IMG/VR virus record: IMGVR_UViG_3300045988_176358
Origin: a virus
Length of the DNA: 50,565 nucleotides
Direction: 5' to 3' (one strand)
Position 1 is the first letter of the stretch, and each line of letters starts with the position of its first letter. A program made the position numbers and the translations under genes. Shown piece by piece: positions 43,224-47,652 of the stretch. Below the pieces are notes generated by a model, which did not search any database, was not told where the DNA came from, and saw nothing but the letters and a program-made list of their open reading frames with translations.

Positions 43224-43631
43224 CTATTCAACAAATTTTGCGAGTTTTGAACGTATTATGGGGTCATTTTTACGAGTACAGCAAAATGCTTCCATATTGC
43301 CCCCATGGTGCTTAAACCACCCATCCCAAGATACACCATCTTGTGAAAACACATTCTTGACATCTTCAAGTGTATAAGCAACCATCACAATAGCTCCAGC
43401 CATTTGCCATTTAAGTAGATTGTACAACTGCTTCTTTGTAGGGATATTTCCATGGTCAACAATCTTCAGCTCAATACGAAATGAACGCCCCTTTATACAT
43501 CCATTTATATCAGCACGACCAGATTGAGCACTGTTCCCAGAAACATTTTCCGCAATGCATTCGGGTAGGCTGTTAAGGTATTTGAGTACACTTTCCTGTA
43601 TTGAAGACTCACGAGGCAATTCAATCACCAC
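43224..43631 (-). CDS. VRR-NUC domain nuclease.
   Basis: GRADINGCIKGRSFRIELKIVDHGNIPTKKQLYNLLKWQMAGAIVMV (D...E.K core). The start is uncertain: GTG 43631 or 43628, or TTG 43619. The track ORF to 43757 overlaps the upstream gene. Confidence 0.7.
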   Translation of the reverse strand: MVIELPRESSIQESVLKYLNSLPECIAENVSGNSAQSGRADINGCIKGRSFRIELKIVDHGNIPTKKQLYNLLKWQMAGAIVMVAYTLEDVKNVFSQDGVSWDGWFKHHGGNMEAFCCTRKNDPIIRSKLAKFVE

Positions 43632-44034
43632 CGAACGCAAGATTTCTAAAATCTTGTGGCTCAAGCCCAACACGCTCAACCCAGAAAAGCGGGTCTTGAA
43701 TATGTGGGATTGCTTTGTCATCAATGTATAAATCTGCATAAATCTTTCGAGTATCATTGTTGAACATCTTGATTGTTTCTGGAAGATTTACATTTACTGC
43801 ATCAAAAAACAAACCCAGGTGAGCACAGTAGTCTACAGCCTCTAGAAGATATTTGCCATCCCTACAAGTCCAAAGAATAAGTTTCACACCAGACTTTTGT
43901 AGAGCCTTGCAAAGTCGAAACATGAATGTATTGGGGGAACCAATGCTCGGGTAATTGTCAGATACCAAGGTTCCATCAAAATCAATTGCAACAATCTTTG
44001 GCAGTGTATCCATCTCACTTTTTGAAATAGCCAT
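43621..44034 (-). CDS. HAD-superfamily phosphatase (deoxynucleotidase-like).
   Basis: Motif I AIDFDGTLV, motif II LILWTCR, motif III/IV KIYADLYIDDK. RBS GGAGG. Confidence 0.75.
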   Translation of the reverse strand: MAISKSEMDTLPKIVAIDFDGTLVSDNYPSIGSPNTFMFRLCKALQKSGVKLILWTCRDGKYLLEAVDYCAHLGLFFDAVNVNLPETIKMFNNDTRKIYADLYIDDKAIPHIQDPLFWVERVGLEPQDFRNLAFGGD

Positions 44035-44419
44035 ACTTTGCGGCCTCCATTTTCATATGTAGTGACGTCCAGTTTTTAATGATGCCATACATTGGTGGAC
44101 GTGCTTTTCCCAATGTTGGGCTGTATAATTCATAATATCTATCTTGGTATGAAATAATAATTGCTTTCTTGAGTGTCTCAATATCTTCTCGTCTGGCCAT
44201 ATGTAATGCAAGGTCGAATTCTTCCTTTGCCCATTTTGAAAGCCAGCCCCCAATATCACACCCATCAGCATTTGTTGAGCTTTGAAATTCCTCCCAGATT
44301 TCCACAGGTACATAGCAAAAGTGGACCCAGGAAATCCTATCGTTATCAATTGTTTTGAGCAGAATCTTCTTGTAATACTCCGGCTTGCCCTTGAGAAACT
44401 TCGGGTGTGGATTTCTCAT
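44015..44419 (-). CDS. Hypothetical protein.
   Basis: ATG 44419 has RBS CAGGAGGAAAACC. The track ORF extends to 44551 inside the ThyA-like gene. Confidence 0.6.
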   Translation of the reverse strand: MRNPHPKFLKGKPEYYKKILLKTIDNDRISWVHFCYVPVEIWEEFQSSTNADGCDIGGWLSKWAKEEFDLALHMARREDIETLKKAIIISYQDRYYELYSPTLGKARPPMYGIIKNWTSLHMKMEAAKYGYFKK

Positions 44420-45251
44420 GGTTTTCCTCCTGCGGTTTGCTTGACGAACGCTTTTTTGCTTTGATAGGGTTTTCCGGCTTTTGAGGCGCATTTCGTTCGT
44501 AAAGGTGAAGCGAAGCAGCCTGATGTACATAAGTACCAACCTCAACCCCAAGGCGCATTGCCATCATCACTTGCATCGAACAGAAACTGAACATGTCATA
44601 TGGAACTCCGGTCCAAACATCATTGGAACGCATAGTGACCGTCAAATTGAGACGATTATTGCGGATAAGAAACTGCAAGGACAATGTGCACGGAGTATCT
44701 TTTGTAGGGTCAGTGATTGCTCTCGGATCTTTGATGTGAATAACAGCTTGGCGACTGTTAGGGTCTTGAGTCAAACGCTCAATGACGTCTTGCCATTGGT
44801 CAAACCCATAGAATGACTGGATTTTGTGCCCATAACAGCTGTTGACAGTTTCACCATCATCAGACATGCGGTCCCAAGCACTGCTGAAATACTGTATATC
44901 ACGCAATTTGTTTGAGCCAGAAAGATACCAAAGCAGCTCTCCTACTGCATAGCGCATAGGCATTTTTCTTGCTTTGCTGTTTACAATCATGCGTGTCGGG
45001 TTTTTGATGACTGTAATTGCATTGAGAATTTCAGCTGCAACAGCACCATCACGACTTTCAGCAACCTTTTCTGAATCCCAGGCTTGCGCTGTCAAAGCTG
45101 CATACCAGTATTCCCAAGCATCGTTTACAGTTTCTGCGACAAGGTAGTTGTCGATGTCACCATCACCACATACACGGTCAGTCTTGTTGTAAAGGGTTTC
45201 AAGCTCAAGCTCTTTGACAGCTTGCTTGAATGTTTCAGGATTGAAAATCAT
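44346..45251 (-). CDS. Thymidylate-synthase-family pyrimidine dNMP hydroxymethylase or methylase, with Asp at the Asn177-equivalent position.
   Basis: By-eye alignment to E. coli ThyA:
- GELLWYLSG aligns with HELLWFLQG.
- DPNSRQAVI aligns with DPDSRRIIV.
- Catalytic PCTLSLQF aligns with PCHAFFQF.
- RSNDVWTGVPYDMFSF aligns with RSCDVFLGLPFNIASY.
- SLHLYERN aligns with DTHLYSNH.

RBS GGAGG. Confidence 0.85.
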   Translation of the reverse strand: MIFNPETFKQAVKELELETLYNKTDRVCGDGDIDNYLVAETVNDAWEYWYAALTAQAWDSEKVAESRDGAVAAEILNAITVIKNPTRMIVNSKARKMPMRYAVGELLWYLSGSNKLRDIQYFSSAWDRMSDDGETVNSCYGHKIQSFYGFDQWQDVIERLTQDPNSRQAVIHIKDPRAITDPTKDTPCTLSLQFLIRNNRLNLTVTMRSNDVWTGVPYDMFSFCSMQVMMAMRLGVEVGTYVHQAASLHLYERNAPQKPENPIKAKKRSSSKPQEENHEKSTPEVSQGQAGVLQEDSAQNN

Positions 45252-45253
45252 AT

Positions 45254-45679: not shown

Positions 45680-45713
45680 TGATTTCCCTCCAATTTATTG
45701 TAGTAAGCCTATT

Positions 45714-46697
45714 TTACTCTTCCCAAGGACGTTTGTAAAGAGTTTTACATAAAGGCTCTGAATTTTTTGAAACCTTTTTTGCAAAAGCAAGAATTTCATC
45801 TGTTGCTTCTGGCATATCTTCCTGACCTTTCATATCAGGAAGCAATCCTACTCTATGGCTTAGAGCATTACAGCCTAAACATGGCTTGAAGCTTCTTTTA
45901 CCAGCGTATAACAGAATGCGGGCAGCTTCAAATCGTTTACTGTACCAAATCTCATCAATTTCTTGTTCCATGATGTTGCCAATTGGGTATTCACCCCGGA
46001 AATCATTACAGCATATAGCCACAGAGCCATCATATCTCAGCGACAACTCTCTAAATGGTCTTGCGCACCTTTTACCCTGATAGGACATATCAAGAGGTCC
46101 AGCGGCTCCACAGTGATTGCAGAGATGACGATTGATGGCACCCTCTTTTTGAATTGGCGGATTGAATAGTACTCTGAATTTTCTTGAGCTGTTTCCATAA
46201 AGGGGTACTCCAGGAGCCAAATGCTGAATATCGATATCAGTATCCAGCTTTGTGAGCTTTTCTTCAATTGTAGCAGCGTCACCTTTGGCAGAATAGTAGT
46301 CAATGATTAAATCGTTGAGACCTGCAGCTTTTAATGCTCTGACGCGCCCCAGGATGTTCTCAAACTCATCTACTTTTTCACCAAACCCATGGACAATTCC
46401 ATAACCATTTGTCATGATAGACATAACAGCTCTTGGGAGGGCTTTTCGAAACAGCTTTATGATTCGAATGATATTCGGGTTTAGCGTGGGTTCCCCATGC
46501 ATAGAAAAGATGATGCGGCTATTCCAACCAACTCGCGCAATCTCCGAAACAATTCGTTCTGCAGTTTTCTTTGTCATTGGATACCAGGGTTTTTTACCCT
46601 CTTCTCGCATTCCACGCAACCCACAGAAATTGCATCCAAGATTGCAGCCCTCATTGAGTTCTACTTGGATAGAAAACGGTGGTGTTTGTTTTCTCAT
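45714..46697 (-). CDS. Radical SAM enzyme with a C-terminal SPASM/twitch-like Cys cluster.
   Basis: CNLGCNFC (CxxxCxxC) is 14 residues from ATG 46697. C-terminal cysteines: CNHC, CARP, ICCNDF, CLGC. The track ORF to 46916 overlaps the upstream gene. Confidence 0.85.
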   Translation of the reverse strand: MRKQTPPFSIQVELNEGCNLGCNFCGLRGMREEGKKPWYPMTKKTAERIVSEIARVGWNSRIIFSMHGEPTLNPNIIRIIKLFRKALPRAVMSIMTNGYGIVHGFGEKVDEFENILGRVRALKAAGLNDLIIDYYSAKGDAATIEEKLTKLDTDIDIQHLAPGVPLYGNSSRKFRVLFNPPIQKEGAINRHLCNHCGAAGPLDMSYQGKRCARPFRELSLRYDGSVAICCNDFRGEYPIGNIMEQEIDEIWYSKRFEAARILLYAGKRSFKPCLGCNALSHRVGLLPDMKGQEDMPEATDEILAFAKKVSKNSEPLCKTLYKRPWEE

Positions 46698-46704
46698 TGT
46701 ACTA

Positions 46705-47652
46705 TTATTCCTCCCAGTATTCCTTGATACGCTTTGAGCCATTGATTTTGTGAAATGCTGTCCAGTTGATATCACCCCACATATAATCTCCGTCAGCATC
46801 ACGAAAGCTCGTGCGCAGATAGTCTCGTATAGGGTACTTTTGTAACATATCCCATTCGTATTTGTGAAGCCGTTTTTCATTCTCTGGTGTACGAATAACG
46901 CTATCACATTTTTCACTCACATAGTCATATGTAAGGCATGGTATGTTGAAACAGTGACCACCATTAGCAAGAATAACTGCACAAAACCCAATGTCATCTC
47001 CATGAGGGTCAAAAATCATGTCACGATTTATCTTTGCTTTGTGAAGCCCTTTTACATTTATGAGAGTGACTTGTCTTGGAGTAGGTCCTGAATCAATGAT
47101 GTATTTGAGTTTGCTGTTTTCAACATGCTGTGACATTCTCTGTCTACGGATATTTCCAAGATACACATTTGGGTACTCTTTAAAAACTTCTCTTGAAATA
47201 GCTCCTGCCATTGTAAGAACTTTTTGTTCGAGTAGAGGGTCTTTTTCTCGGTCTGCTTTTACAGCATGCTTTGAGCATAGATTTCCAGAGCCAGACTTCC
47301 CATCATACATATATGCAAGATTCTTGATATCATCATCCATATCGATAATAAGTGGATAACGATGTTCCGCAGCATATTCATAAATGAACTGACGAGTGCT
47401 TGCTAACCCATTGATTGGCAGATGAAAATCTTTTGGTATAGGCAAAATATGCAAGTTTTTGTTTGCCTTTCTATATGCCTTTGCTTGTTCTTGCCTTACA
47501 ACAATATGAACTTTTTCAATGGCTTCATCTGTGAAATTCTCAAACATTTTTGCTGTCACAAACTCAGGTCTATTATAAGATGGTACAAAAATATGAGGGA
47601 GTTGGGATGTAGATAGACAGTTCAACAGGTTATACATTTTTTTCTTTCTCAT
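46705..47652 (-). CDS. GT-A-fold glycosyltransferase-like protein (DxD), possibly TET/JBP-associated-glycosyltransferase-like.
   Basis: 315 aa from ATG 47652 (RBS GGAGG 5 nt upstream). HIFVPSYNRPE... and LIIDMDDDI are typical GT-A N-terminal and DxD motifs. Confidence 0.55.
   Translation of the reverse strand: MRKKKMYNLLNCLSTSQLPHIFVPSYNRPEFVTAKMFENFTDEAIEKVHIVVRQEQAKAYRKANKNLHILPIPKDFHLPINGLASTRQFIYEYAAEHRYPLIIDMDDDIKNLAYMYDGKSGSGNLCSKHAVKADREKDPLLEQKVLTMAGAISREVFKEYPNVYLGNIRRQRMSQHVENSKLKYIIDSGPTPRQVTLINVKGLHKAKINRDMIFDPHGDDIGFCAVILANGGHCFNIPCLTYDYVSEKCDSVIRTPENEKRLHKYEWDMLQKYPIRDYLRTSFRDADGDYMWGDINWTAFHKINGSKRIKEYWEE

Follow-up and report, generated by a model that had tools for sequence, protein, structure and literature searches.

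We analyzed a viral genome (IMG/VR record IMGVR_UViG_3300045988_176358; 50,565 nucleotides, nt) whose minus strand carries a six-gene cassette at 43621–47652. Hereafter, "the window" denotes this whole stretch of DNA. The cassette places enzymes predicted to make 5-hydroxymethylcytosine (5hmC) beside a DNA glycosyltransferase (GT) and a radical S-adenosylmethionine (SAM) enzyme related to BtrN. Its features, from the GT gene onward, are as follows (aa, amino acids; ORF, open reading frame):

46705..47652, minus strand: predicted GT-A-type DNA glycosyltransferase of the TAGT family (315 aa; DMDDD; pI 8.8)
45714..46697, minus strand: radical SAM enzyme with a Twitch/SPASM auxiliary-cluster domain, BtrN-like (327 aa; ATG start at 46697)
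45254..45679, minus strand: minimal Tmk/YorR-like P-loop nucleotide kinase, predicted hm-dCMP kinase (141 aa)
44346..45251, minus strand: thymidylate-synthase-fold enzyme with the dCMP hydroxymethylase signature, the ThyA homolog (301 aa)
44015..44419, minus strand: ORF2, conserved protein without assigned function (134 aa; pI 9.1)
43621..44034, minus strand: cap-less HAD phosphatase of the BT0820 type (137 aa; DFDGT)

The original prediction for this DNA had described six back-to-back minus-strand genes with tight or overlapping junctions and strong ribosome-binding sites, and all of them lie where it placed them. A GGAGG-type ribosome-binding site precedes each of the six starts, and the junctions from GT to HAD measure +7, +34 and +2 nt, followed by overlaps of 74 nt and 20 nt. 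The five catalytic motifs that it had read are likewise found in the translations (DFDGT; DTPCTLSLQF; LEGADGAGKST; CNLGCNFC together with C-terminal cysteines; DMDDD), and the families they point to are backed by profile searches, the HAD protein scoring under its curated cut-off. In the Pfam scan, Thymidylat_synt, Thymidylate_kin, Radical_SAM with SPASM, and TAGT all exceeded their gathering scores, far beyond chance. The GT, the radical SAM protein and ORF2 are basic (pI 8.8–9.1), and the ThyA homolog, the kinase and the HAD protein are acidic; this split is weakly compatible with the GT and the radical SAM enzyme acting on DNA.

The likely identity of the modified base comes from the ThyA homolog. 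This protein matches Pfam PF00303 Thymidylat_synt (4.5e-34), and its best relative in the Protein Data Bank (PDB) is the CMP 5-hydroxymethylase MilA (4e-34), with true thymidylate synthases (TS) at ~1e-21. We read its specificity residues from HMMER alignments to MilA and bacterial TS, and from an alignment of relatives, using the E. coli numbering. The catalytic nucleophile is kept, with Cys at position 146 (DTPCT, aligned with the catalytic Cys of MilA and TS). The position of Asn177 holds an Asp in the window protein (VPYDMFSF, versus AVSDVFSF in MilA and VPFNIASY in TS) and in all of its close relatives; N177D denotes cytosine specificity (PMC13326640). Three residues before the catalytic Cys (KDTPC), the position of Leu143 is also occupied by Asp, as in MilA, where TS has Leu, and L143D/E correlates with a hydroxymethyl rather than a methyl product, a matter of water access (PMC13326640). 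Position 169 retains Asp (RSND), shared with MilA, instead of the Asn that marks the recently discovered 5-hydroxy-dCMP synthases of the RB69 gp48 / DLP3 gp80 type (D169N; PMC13326640). Finally, Ser167 and Arg126' are kept (RSND and NSRQ, versus RAND and DSKR in MilA); Ser/Arg as opposed to the Ala176/Lys133' of the ribo-preferring MilA divides deoxy- from ribo-preferring enzymes (PMC5175136). Taken together, Asp177, Asp143, Asp169 and Ser167/Arg126' constitute the full dCMP hydroxymethylase signature of the T4 gp42 / MilA type.

These residues lead us to predict that the modified base is cytosine, and that the ThyA homolog turns dCMP into 5hm-dCMP. Three other identities were considered and rejected: an ordinary dTMP synthase, because of Asp177 and Asp143; a 5-hydroxy-dCMP synthase, because Asp169 is retained; and a CMP-specific enzyme of the MilA type, because of the Ser/Arg pair. 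Thus, the earlier proposal that the phage makes a 5-hydroxymethylpyrimidine and then decorates it is supported, both by this signature and by the TAGT-family GT, with the base now refined to a predicted cytosine. The ThyA homolog ends in a low-complexity, non-conserved tail of ~44 residues (44346–44480, minus strand), whose coding sequence shares 74 nt with the 5' part of ORF2; in more distant relatives (220–275 aa) this tail is missing. A frameshift fusing ThyA to ORF2 was rejected, since the relatives have separate genes of the same lengths.

The kinase matches Pfam PF02223 Thymidylate_kin (1e-11; 45.3 bits versus a cut-off of 27) and phrog_761 (1.6e-17), and its best PDB relative is YorR of SPbeta (2axp, 4e-10). 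It has the P-loop GADGAGKST and a DRF motif, and at 141 aa is unusually short, like SPbeta YorR. HMUDK_HMUD1 (PF18748) is not among the best 25 of its 28 Pfam families (E <= 0.1), so that any match would be weaker than E ~0.07. We predict that the kinase makes 5hm-dCDP from 5hm-dCMP.

The two remaining cassette proteins are less specific, and any part they take in the pathway is presumptive. The HAD protein matches NCBIfam BT0820 (1.8e-31; 109 bits, under the 165-bit cut-off) and phrog_1238, with PDB 2obb as its best solved relative (3e-20). Its family spans 270 records from diverse phages, some with modified DNA and some without, and is therefore not a specific marker of a DNA-modification pathway; a literature search on BT0820 gave nothing relevant, and no substrate is reported for the family. 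ORF2 matches nothing in Pfam, PHROG, NCBIfam or PADLOC and has six metagenomic homologs only (127–137 aa), although its position is conserved in every close relative.

The radical SAM enzyme and its glycosyltransferase partner

Profile searches and structure prediction, both of which the original prediction had called for, placed the GT in a family of DNA glycosyltransferases, set the ThyA homolog apart from ordinary dTMP synthases, and gave for the radical SAM protein a fold closest to BtrN (predicted local distance difference test, pLDDT, 85.9); the AlphaFold model of ORF2 (pLDDT 45.8) was unusable and was set aside. The GT matches Pfam TAGT (PF20691) over residues 20–119 (1e-11; 45.6 bits versus a cut-off of 27.5), phrog_4519 glycosyltransferase over its full length (5.5e-23) and phrog_842 (5e-13); it has no match among PDB sequences. 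Among GenBank phages, its homologs are confined to Microbacterium phages (~30% identity), where they lie beside an Asp-type ThyA homolog, a Tmk, a second GT and a MazG gene. Phage GTs associated with 5mYOX, of both GT-A and GT-B fold, add hexose, HexNAc, heptose and other sugars to 5hmC in DNA, and ThyS-associated GT-A clusters occur in metagenomes (Pyle et al. 2023, bioRxiv 10.1101/2023.12.21.572611). No TET/JBP dioxygenase was matched among the window ORFs scanned, and the predicted source of the hydroxymethyl group in the window is the ThyA homolog in place of the dioxygenase usual with TAGT. By sequence, the GT is a TAGT-family GT-A enzyme, which would transfer a sugar to 5hmC in DNA.

The radical SAM protein matches Pfam Radical_SAM (1.5e-11) and SPASM (7e-13). 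A profile of 13 homologs compared with PDB found BtrN at 1e-18, over both the core and the auxiliary-cluster domain, with the anaerobic sulfatase-maturating enzyme (anSME) next at 8.5e-5. The AlphaFold model, built from 47 sequences, agrees: its top Foldseek match is BtrN (E 7e-15; target-normalized template modeling score, TM, 0.78–0.82; 22% identity), ahead by at least seven orders of magnitude of anSME and other SPASM/Twitch enzymes, all at 1e-7 or worse. No spore photoproduct lyase structure is among the top 50 structural matches, and the fold search of BFVD returned no close viral structure (best TM 0.53, 16% identity). Two sets of cysteines are invariant in the 47 homologs, namely C17-X3-C21-X2-C24 and C210/C228/C272/C275, the latter aligned with the Twitch segment of BtrN that holds an auxiliary [4Fe-4S] cluster. 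BtrN oxidizes a secondary alcohol of an aminocyclitol to the ketone without oxygen or NAD. Sequence and predicted fold identify the phage protein as a BtrN-like Twitch enzyme, with a substrate surely other than that of BtrN. That its reaction is specifically a dehydrogenation is a tentative guess by analogy, possible but doubtful.

Two other identities were tried and rejected for this protein. An isomerase of the M6 type belongs to a different radical SAM clade. The analogy with phage M6 that had been drawn for the window consequently holds at the level of the superfamily but fails at that of the clade, BtrN-like Twitch as opposed to spore-photoproduct-lyase-like. A viperin was rejected because the auxiliary-cluster domain is present and the scores fall far under threshold: NCBIfam viperin gives 24.5 bits against a cut-off of 180, and the PADLOC pVip match (4.8e-7) covers residues 9–108 only, the generic N-terminal cluster region. 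"Annotated viperins" have been named as neighboring defense genes of phage GT pathways (Pyle et al. 2023, bioRxiv 10.1101/2023.12.21.572611); weak matches of this sort are probably what explains them.

The radical SAM family is large: it has >750 close metagenomic members and forms at least 126 clusters at 50% identity (E < 1e-30). One pattern-based scan of 185,579 species genomes found it in only three contigs of metagenome-assembled genomes (MAGs), and tblastn of the radical SAM protein against the INPHARED phages gave only three weak matches. The family thus appears to be restricted to viruses and nearly absent from sequenced phage isolates. We collected 82 loci encoding such a protein, 79 of them taken from IMG/VR and the others found through assembly look-ups; they correspond to 38 lineages at 90% identity. 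In 35 of the 38 lineages the radical SAM gene has a GT-like gene no more than 3 kb away; this figure includes GT-like genes of unconfirmed fold, a TAGT being confirmed in 17 of the 38. Moreover, the two activities are fused in some proteins (TAGT::radical SAM in P0136 and P0144, and a putative GT-B::radical SAM in P0128), and a radical SAM::PIG-L-like fusion also occurs (P0127). The constant partner is therefore a glycosyltransferase, rather than ThyA or the kinase, which ties the function of the radical SAM enzyme to the glycosyl step. ThyA homologs adjoin the family in two distant groups, of the Asp type in one and of the Asn type in the other.

Three arrangements can be distinguished. Group A (about 50 kb, including the window) has the order DUF669 – GT – radical SAM – kinase – ThyA – ORF2 – HAD – nuclease – SNF2. 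One variant (L006) has HMUDK, an amino acid:DNA transferase (AADT) and an Fe-ADH/HAD fusion in place of the kinase, and its ThyA is still of the Asp type; its kinase counterpart matches PF18748. In this variant, a Logan contig of a syntenic phage (ERR14075509, positions 3924–9965; radical SAM protein 66% identical), we found an Fe-ADH::HAD fusion of 520 aa, AADT, a 5-HMUDK P-loop kinase, TAGT, the radical SAM gene and DUF1599. Group B (about 100 kb; one match to a Bacteroidales MAG) has a MuF-like head protein, the radical SAM enzyme, a PIG-L-like deacetylase and either a TAGT or a 480-aa putative GT; it is represented by L004, L020, L024, L029 and about 45 other IMG/VR loci. The PIG-L-like neighbor (c2) shows sub-threshold but consistent Pfam matches in 10 of 13 members, with PHSDD / HPFH motifs, and its profile has no match in PDB; PIG-L-like::TAGT fusions occur in L063, L069 and L061. 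The set of a GT, a PIG-L/LmbE-like protein and a BtrN-like enzyme in this group recalls BtrM/BtrD/BtrN of butirosin biosynthesis. Group C combines the radical SAM enzyme and TAGT with HMUDK_hel, a putative GT-B, an Asn-type (dUMP) ThyA and an HD nucleotidase.

Some family loci carry further elements. Inteins split the MuF-like head protein adjoining the radical SAM gene in L070 (7234–9234), and in P0143 the radical SAM enzyme is itself split by an intein that contains an HNH domain. We also observed an APS kinase beside the radical SAM and TAGT genes, with possible sulfation (L084, 10957–11562), a dUTPase with a ferritin-like protein (L072, 10955–12037), an IS605 OrfB/TnpB element (L074, 10963–12147) and two tandem copies of the radical SAM gene (L082, 9992–11911).

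Genome setting and further candidate genes

The window is a complete siphovirus-like genome. Its structural and packaging genes include those for the large terminase, portal, major head protein, tape measure protein and Dit, and it also encodes PolA, a primase and a sigma factor. An exact direct repeat of 50 nt (window 1–50 = 50516–50565) forms its ends, and the assembly is therefore circular and complete at about 50,515 nt. As a consequence, the minus-strand genes at 1–13006 and 41489–50215 form one contiguous early module, in which three genes of interest lie upstream of the cassette. These, together with the end of the transcription unit, are:

6829..7863, minus strand: ViI gp160-like protein, aG/PT-PPlase clade 1, Pfam HMUDK_hel (344 aa)
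6181..6660, minus strand: dCMP/cytidine deaminase (159 aa; Pfam dCMP_cyt_deam_1, 6.3e-15)
5808..6218, minus strand: MazG-like nucleoside triphosphate pyrophosphohydrolase, candidate dCTPase (136 aa; phrog_2245, 3.8e-14)
41478..41504, minus strand: intrinsic terminator of the long minus-strand unit holding the cassette (12-bp stem with 8 GC pairs, then a T-run)

No internal terminator was seen in the six-gene block; a strong one lies at 41504–41478, 3' of the SNF2 helicase gene. The proposed pathway has its core at 43621–47652, and further candidate genes for it lie outside these coordinates. For the depletion of the canonical nucleotide, a task that the original prediction had ascribed to phosphatases or NTPases in phages of this kind, the HAD protein is a weak candidate, its family being widespread in phages, and the MazG-like protein at 5808–6218 is a better one. 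As the main dCTP/dCMP-depleting enzyme, we reject the HAD protein. A dCTPase role for the MazG-like protein may be drawn by analogy, from T4 gp56 and from the MazG genes that stand beside homologous genes in ViI and Microbacterium phages. To judge by their sequences, the MazG-like protein and the dCMP deaminase, added to the cassette, make up a full set of the enzymes in the T4 hm-dC paradigm.

The gp160-like protein matches Pfam HMUDK_hel (1.9e-58) and, across 98% of its length, shares 33–36% identity with Ackermannviridae proteins, Vi01_130c/orf00160 among them. A literature search on the HMUDK helical domain gave nothing relevant. ViI gp160 is aG/PT-PPlase1 of the thymidine-hypermodifying phages (PMC5889632). 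The aG/PT-PPlase match of the window is to clade 1 only, and no AADT was found among the window ORFs scanned (some small ORFs lay outside the scan).

An IMG/VR contig (UViG 3300045988_175258; 50,353 nt) encodes a radical SAM protein 100% identical to that of the window. Megablast of the cassette against GenBank phages gave no match, and the window phage has no sequenced cultured relative. The nearest ThyA homolog is found in Agathobaculum phages (52% identity) and the nearest HAD protein in a Lactobacillus phage (57% identity). The Agathobaculum match makes an anaerobic gut bacterium of the class Clostridia the likely host.

Several other features of the minus strand deserve mention. Heading the long minus-strand module is a phage sigma-70 family factor with regions 2 and 4 (12365–13006, minus strand). 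Next to the GT gene, a DUF669 protein (47714–48421, minus strand) has a C-terminal tail of ~110 residues in which poly-Asp/Glu runs alternate with Lys/Ala/Pro-rich runs; DUF669 proteins are annotated in PHROGs as single-strand-binding-like. Two adjacent tRNA genes (50246–50413, minus strand), a tRNA-Ser(CGA) and one assigned to Cys whose anticodon, ACA, is unusual, stand directly upstream of a PD-(D/E)XK nuclease gene. The gene 3' of HAD (43224–43619, minus strand) probably starts at a TTG at 43619, giving 131 aa, and not at the ATG at 43757; the shorter form agrees with relatives of about 131–133 aa and matches phrog_93 "endonuclease" (4.5e-9).

Proposed pathway and competing explanations

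We propose the following pathway. Before replication, the MazG-like pyrophosphohydrolase would convert dCTP to dCMP, which the ThyA homolog would turn into 5hm-dCMP; the Tmk/YorR-like kinase would raise this to 5hm-dCDP and the host NDP kinase to the triphosphate, for incorporation by the phage PolA. The dCMP deaminase would supply the dTTP pool. After replication, the TAGT enzyme would move a sugar from a host nucleoside diphosphate sugar (NDP-sugar) onto the 5-hydroxymethyl group in DNA, and the BtrN-like enzyme would then tailor the DNA-bound sugar, most likely by oxidation. In the likeliest form of this reaction, the 5'-deoxyadenosyl radical would take the carbinol hydrogen and one electron would pass to the auxiliary [4Fe-4S] cluster, leaving a keto-sugar; such an oxidation, independent of oxygen and NAD, would suit an anaerobic host. 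We consider this overall scheme (hmC, its glycosylation, and radical-SAM-dependent tailoring of the same adduct) to be probable. That the Twitch enzyme acts directly on a glycosylated 5-hydroxymethylpyrimidine in DNA, giving a base not yet described (a keto-, epimerized or otherwise tailored glycosyl-5hmC), is quite possible, though short of probable. Overall, the final base has a substantial chance of being chemically new.

A number of observations weigh against this scheme, or against parts of it. The similarity to BtrN amounts to only ~22% identity, which makes dehydrogenation a best guess, and the Twitch/SPASM enzymes also carry out epimerization, C-C and C-S bond formation, and other reactions. 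The window has no aminotransferase or other keto-sugar-using enzyme. The substrate of the radical SAM enzyme could be the NDP-sugar donor instead of DNA. For two types of neighbors (c11 and c65) and for the N-terminus of P0128, a GT-B fold could not be confirmed. The gp160-like protein belongs to thymidine hypermodification systems and fits poorly in a pure hmC-glycosyl scheme, as does the thymidine-type machinery that stands beside a cytosine-type ThyA in L006. In group B, finally, the radical SAM and GT genes are embedded in the head/portal region and lack a ThyA gene within 10 kb, so that the target is less certain there.

Among the alternatives, the one that survives best has the radical SAM enzyme working on the NDP-sugar donor before transfer, with TAGT then putting an unusual sugar on 5hmC and no radical chemistry taking place on DNA; even so, the resulting base would be an unusual one. 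BtrN and the nearest sugar-acting structural relatives (SpeY, DesII, AbmM) all use small molecules, and fusion or adjacency to a GT is equally expected of a donor-making enzyme. However, a general NDP-sugar enzyme would not be expected to be nearly confined to viral contigs, as this family appears to be (three MAG contigs in the one pattern-based scan of 185,579 species genomes), the radical SAM protein is basic like the GT, and the cassette has no nucleotidyltransferase or other sugar-activation gene in the Pfam, PHROG and NCBIfam scans. We regard this alternative as unlikely.

Less probable again is an action on the C5 substituent of the pyrimidine, in which the enzyme would be an anaerobic counterpart of TET/JBP, oxidizing 5-hydroxymethyl to formyl or making the acceptor from 5-methyl. 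It would account for the fact that TAGT, usually partnered with an oxidase (TET), has a radical SAM partner here and in the fusions, and for the lack of ThyA within 10 kb in the roughly 100-kb relatives; anSME, the second-best relative, oxidizes a primary alcohol (Ser to formylglycine). Yet BtrN is a far better match than anSME, and in the window and in group C a ThyA homolog already provides the hydroxymethyl group, so that an acceptor-maker would be redundant. Moreover, a formyl group is not a GT acceptor, and the roughly 100-kb group has a PIG-L-like deacetylase as its constant third partner, a sign of sugar chemistry.

We give even less credence to a modified base derived from thymine or uracil. 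In this case, 5hm-dCMP would be deaminated to 5hm-dUMP, or the ThyA homolog would take dUMP, and the gp160-like protein, the kinase and the GT/radical SAM pair would then act on 5hmU in DNA. The window does encode both a ViI gp160-like protein and a dCMP deaminase, L006 has the same Asp-type ThyA with HMUDK and AADT genes, and distant relatives pair the radical SAM enzyme with an Asn-type (dUMP) ThyA and HMUDK_hel proteins. Against this, the specificity residues of the ThyA homolog match those of cytosine enzymes, the window kinase is Tmk-like, with HMUDK_HMUD1 not among the best 25 of its 28 Pfam families, no AADT is found among the ORFs scanned, and T4 too has a dCMP deaminase while using hmC.

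Least probable of all is a plain T4-like glycosyl-5hmC with an unrelated radical SAM protein, for instance a viperin-like enzyme that, paired with the adjacent kinase, modifies nucleotides or acts against the host: PADLOC does match pVip, "viperins associated with kinases," to the radical SAM protein (4.8e-7) and VakA to the kinase (1.1e-12), both weakly, and "annotated viperins" were reported near phage GT pathways in the metagenome survey, but the pVip match is confined to the N-terminal cluster region, the NCBIfam score is far too low, viperins have no auxiliary-cluster domain where the window protein has a complete one of the BtrN type, and the fusions are to TAGT, not to kinases.

If the proposed action on DNA is true, then these enzymes would be a second, unrelated class of radical SAM writers of DNA modification, widespread in phages of anaerobes, including the roughly 100-kb Bacteroidales-associated phages with a PIG-L-like deacetylase. 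A radical SAM enzyme hard-wired to a DNA GT would bring oxygen-independent radical chemistry to sugar-bearing pyrimidines. Hypermodification of phage DNA decides the access of restriction enzymes, CRISPR nucleases and sequencing chemistries, and is a source of tools for epigenetic analysis. The family is without a cultured representative, and gut and environmental phages may thus contain an entire class of modified DNA that is uncharacterized.

Comparison with known systems

The original prediction had recognized no described pathway in this combination of genes, and we found no counterpart in the literature searched: searches combining BtrN with phage DNA modification, and radical SAM and SPASM with ThyA and GT, returned no pathway with a BtrN-like radical SAM enzyme and a DNA GT. 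To our knowledge, no radical SAM enzyme other than M6 gp53 is known to install a DNA modification, and the sugar-bearing pyrimidines described so far arise from a hydroxylated base, glycosyltransferases and ordinary sugar-nucleotide enzymes.

Closest in its nucleotide metabolism is the glucosyl-5hmC pathway of T4 (gp56, gp42, gp1, cd and the alpha/beta-glucosyltransferases), which has the same enzyme classes and a ThyA-fold hydroxymethylase with the same signature residues. The two differ in their glycosyltransferases, GT-B enzymes in T4 versus the GT-A-type TAGT, and in the kinase, gp1 versus the 141-aa Tmk/YorR-like protein. The Twitch radical SAM enzyme, HAD, ORF2 and the gp160-like protein have no T4 counterpart, and the window phage is siphovirus-like, with a genome of roughly 50.5 kb. 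The same GT family serves in the TET/5mYOX-associated pathways found in metagenomic phages (Burke et al. 2021, PMC8256090; Pyle et al. 2023), but there 5hmC comes from a methyltransferase and TET, whereas in the window it would come from the ThyA homolog before replication. Neither paper describes a radical SAM partner; Pyle et al. mention only the "annotated viperins" (bioRxiv 10.1101/2023.12.21.572611). The ThyA-GT-Tmk-GT-MazG cluster of Microbacterium phages (e.g., Luna18) shares with the window the GT (~30%), the Asp-type ThyA, Tmk, MazG and a gp160-like protein, but has a second GT in place of the radical SAM enzyme; for these phages, we found no characterized DNA chemistry in the literature.

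Tailoring by a radical SAM enzyme after replication, as proposed for the window, has a precedent in the pyrimidine hypermodification of phage M6, by gp53 (Lee et al. 2021, PMC8989533). However, gp53 is spore-photoproduct-lyase-like, without SPASM/Twitch, and rearranges a glycine adduct on 5hmU (PMC8989533). With BtrN, the 2-deoxy-scyllo-inosamine dehydrogenase of butirosin biosynthesis (PDB 4m7t), the phage enzyme shares the CX3CX2C site and the four-cysteine Twitch cluster; it differs in being ~75 residues longer, in its family-specific insertions and conserved C-terminal tail, in its place within phage gene sets for DNA modification, and in the TAGT fusions of some relatives. Thus, the pre-replicative half of the pathway is of the well-known T4-like kind and the GT belongs to a described family, and it is the BtrN-like partner that represents an undescribed step.

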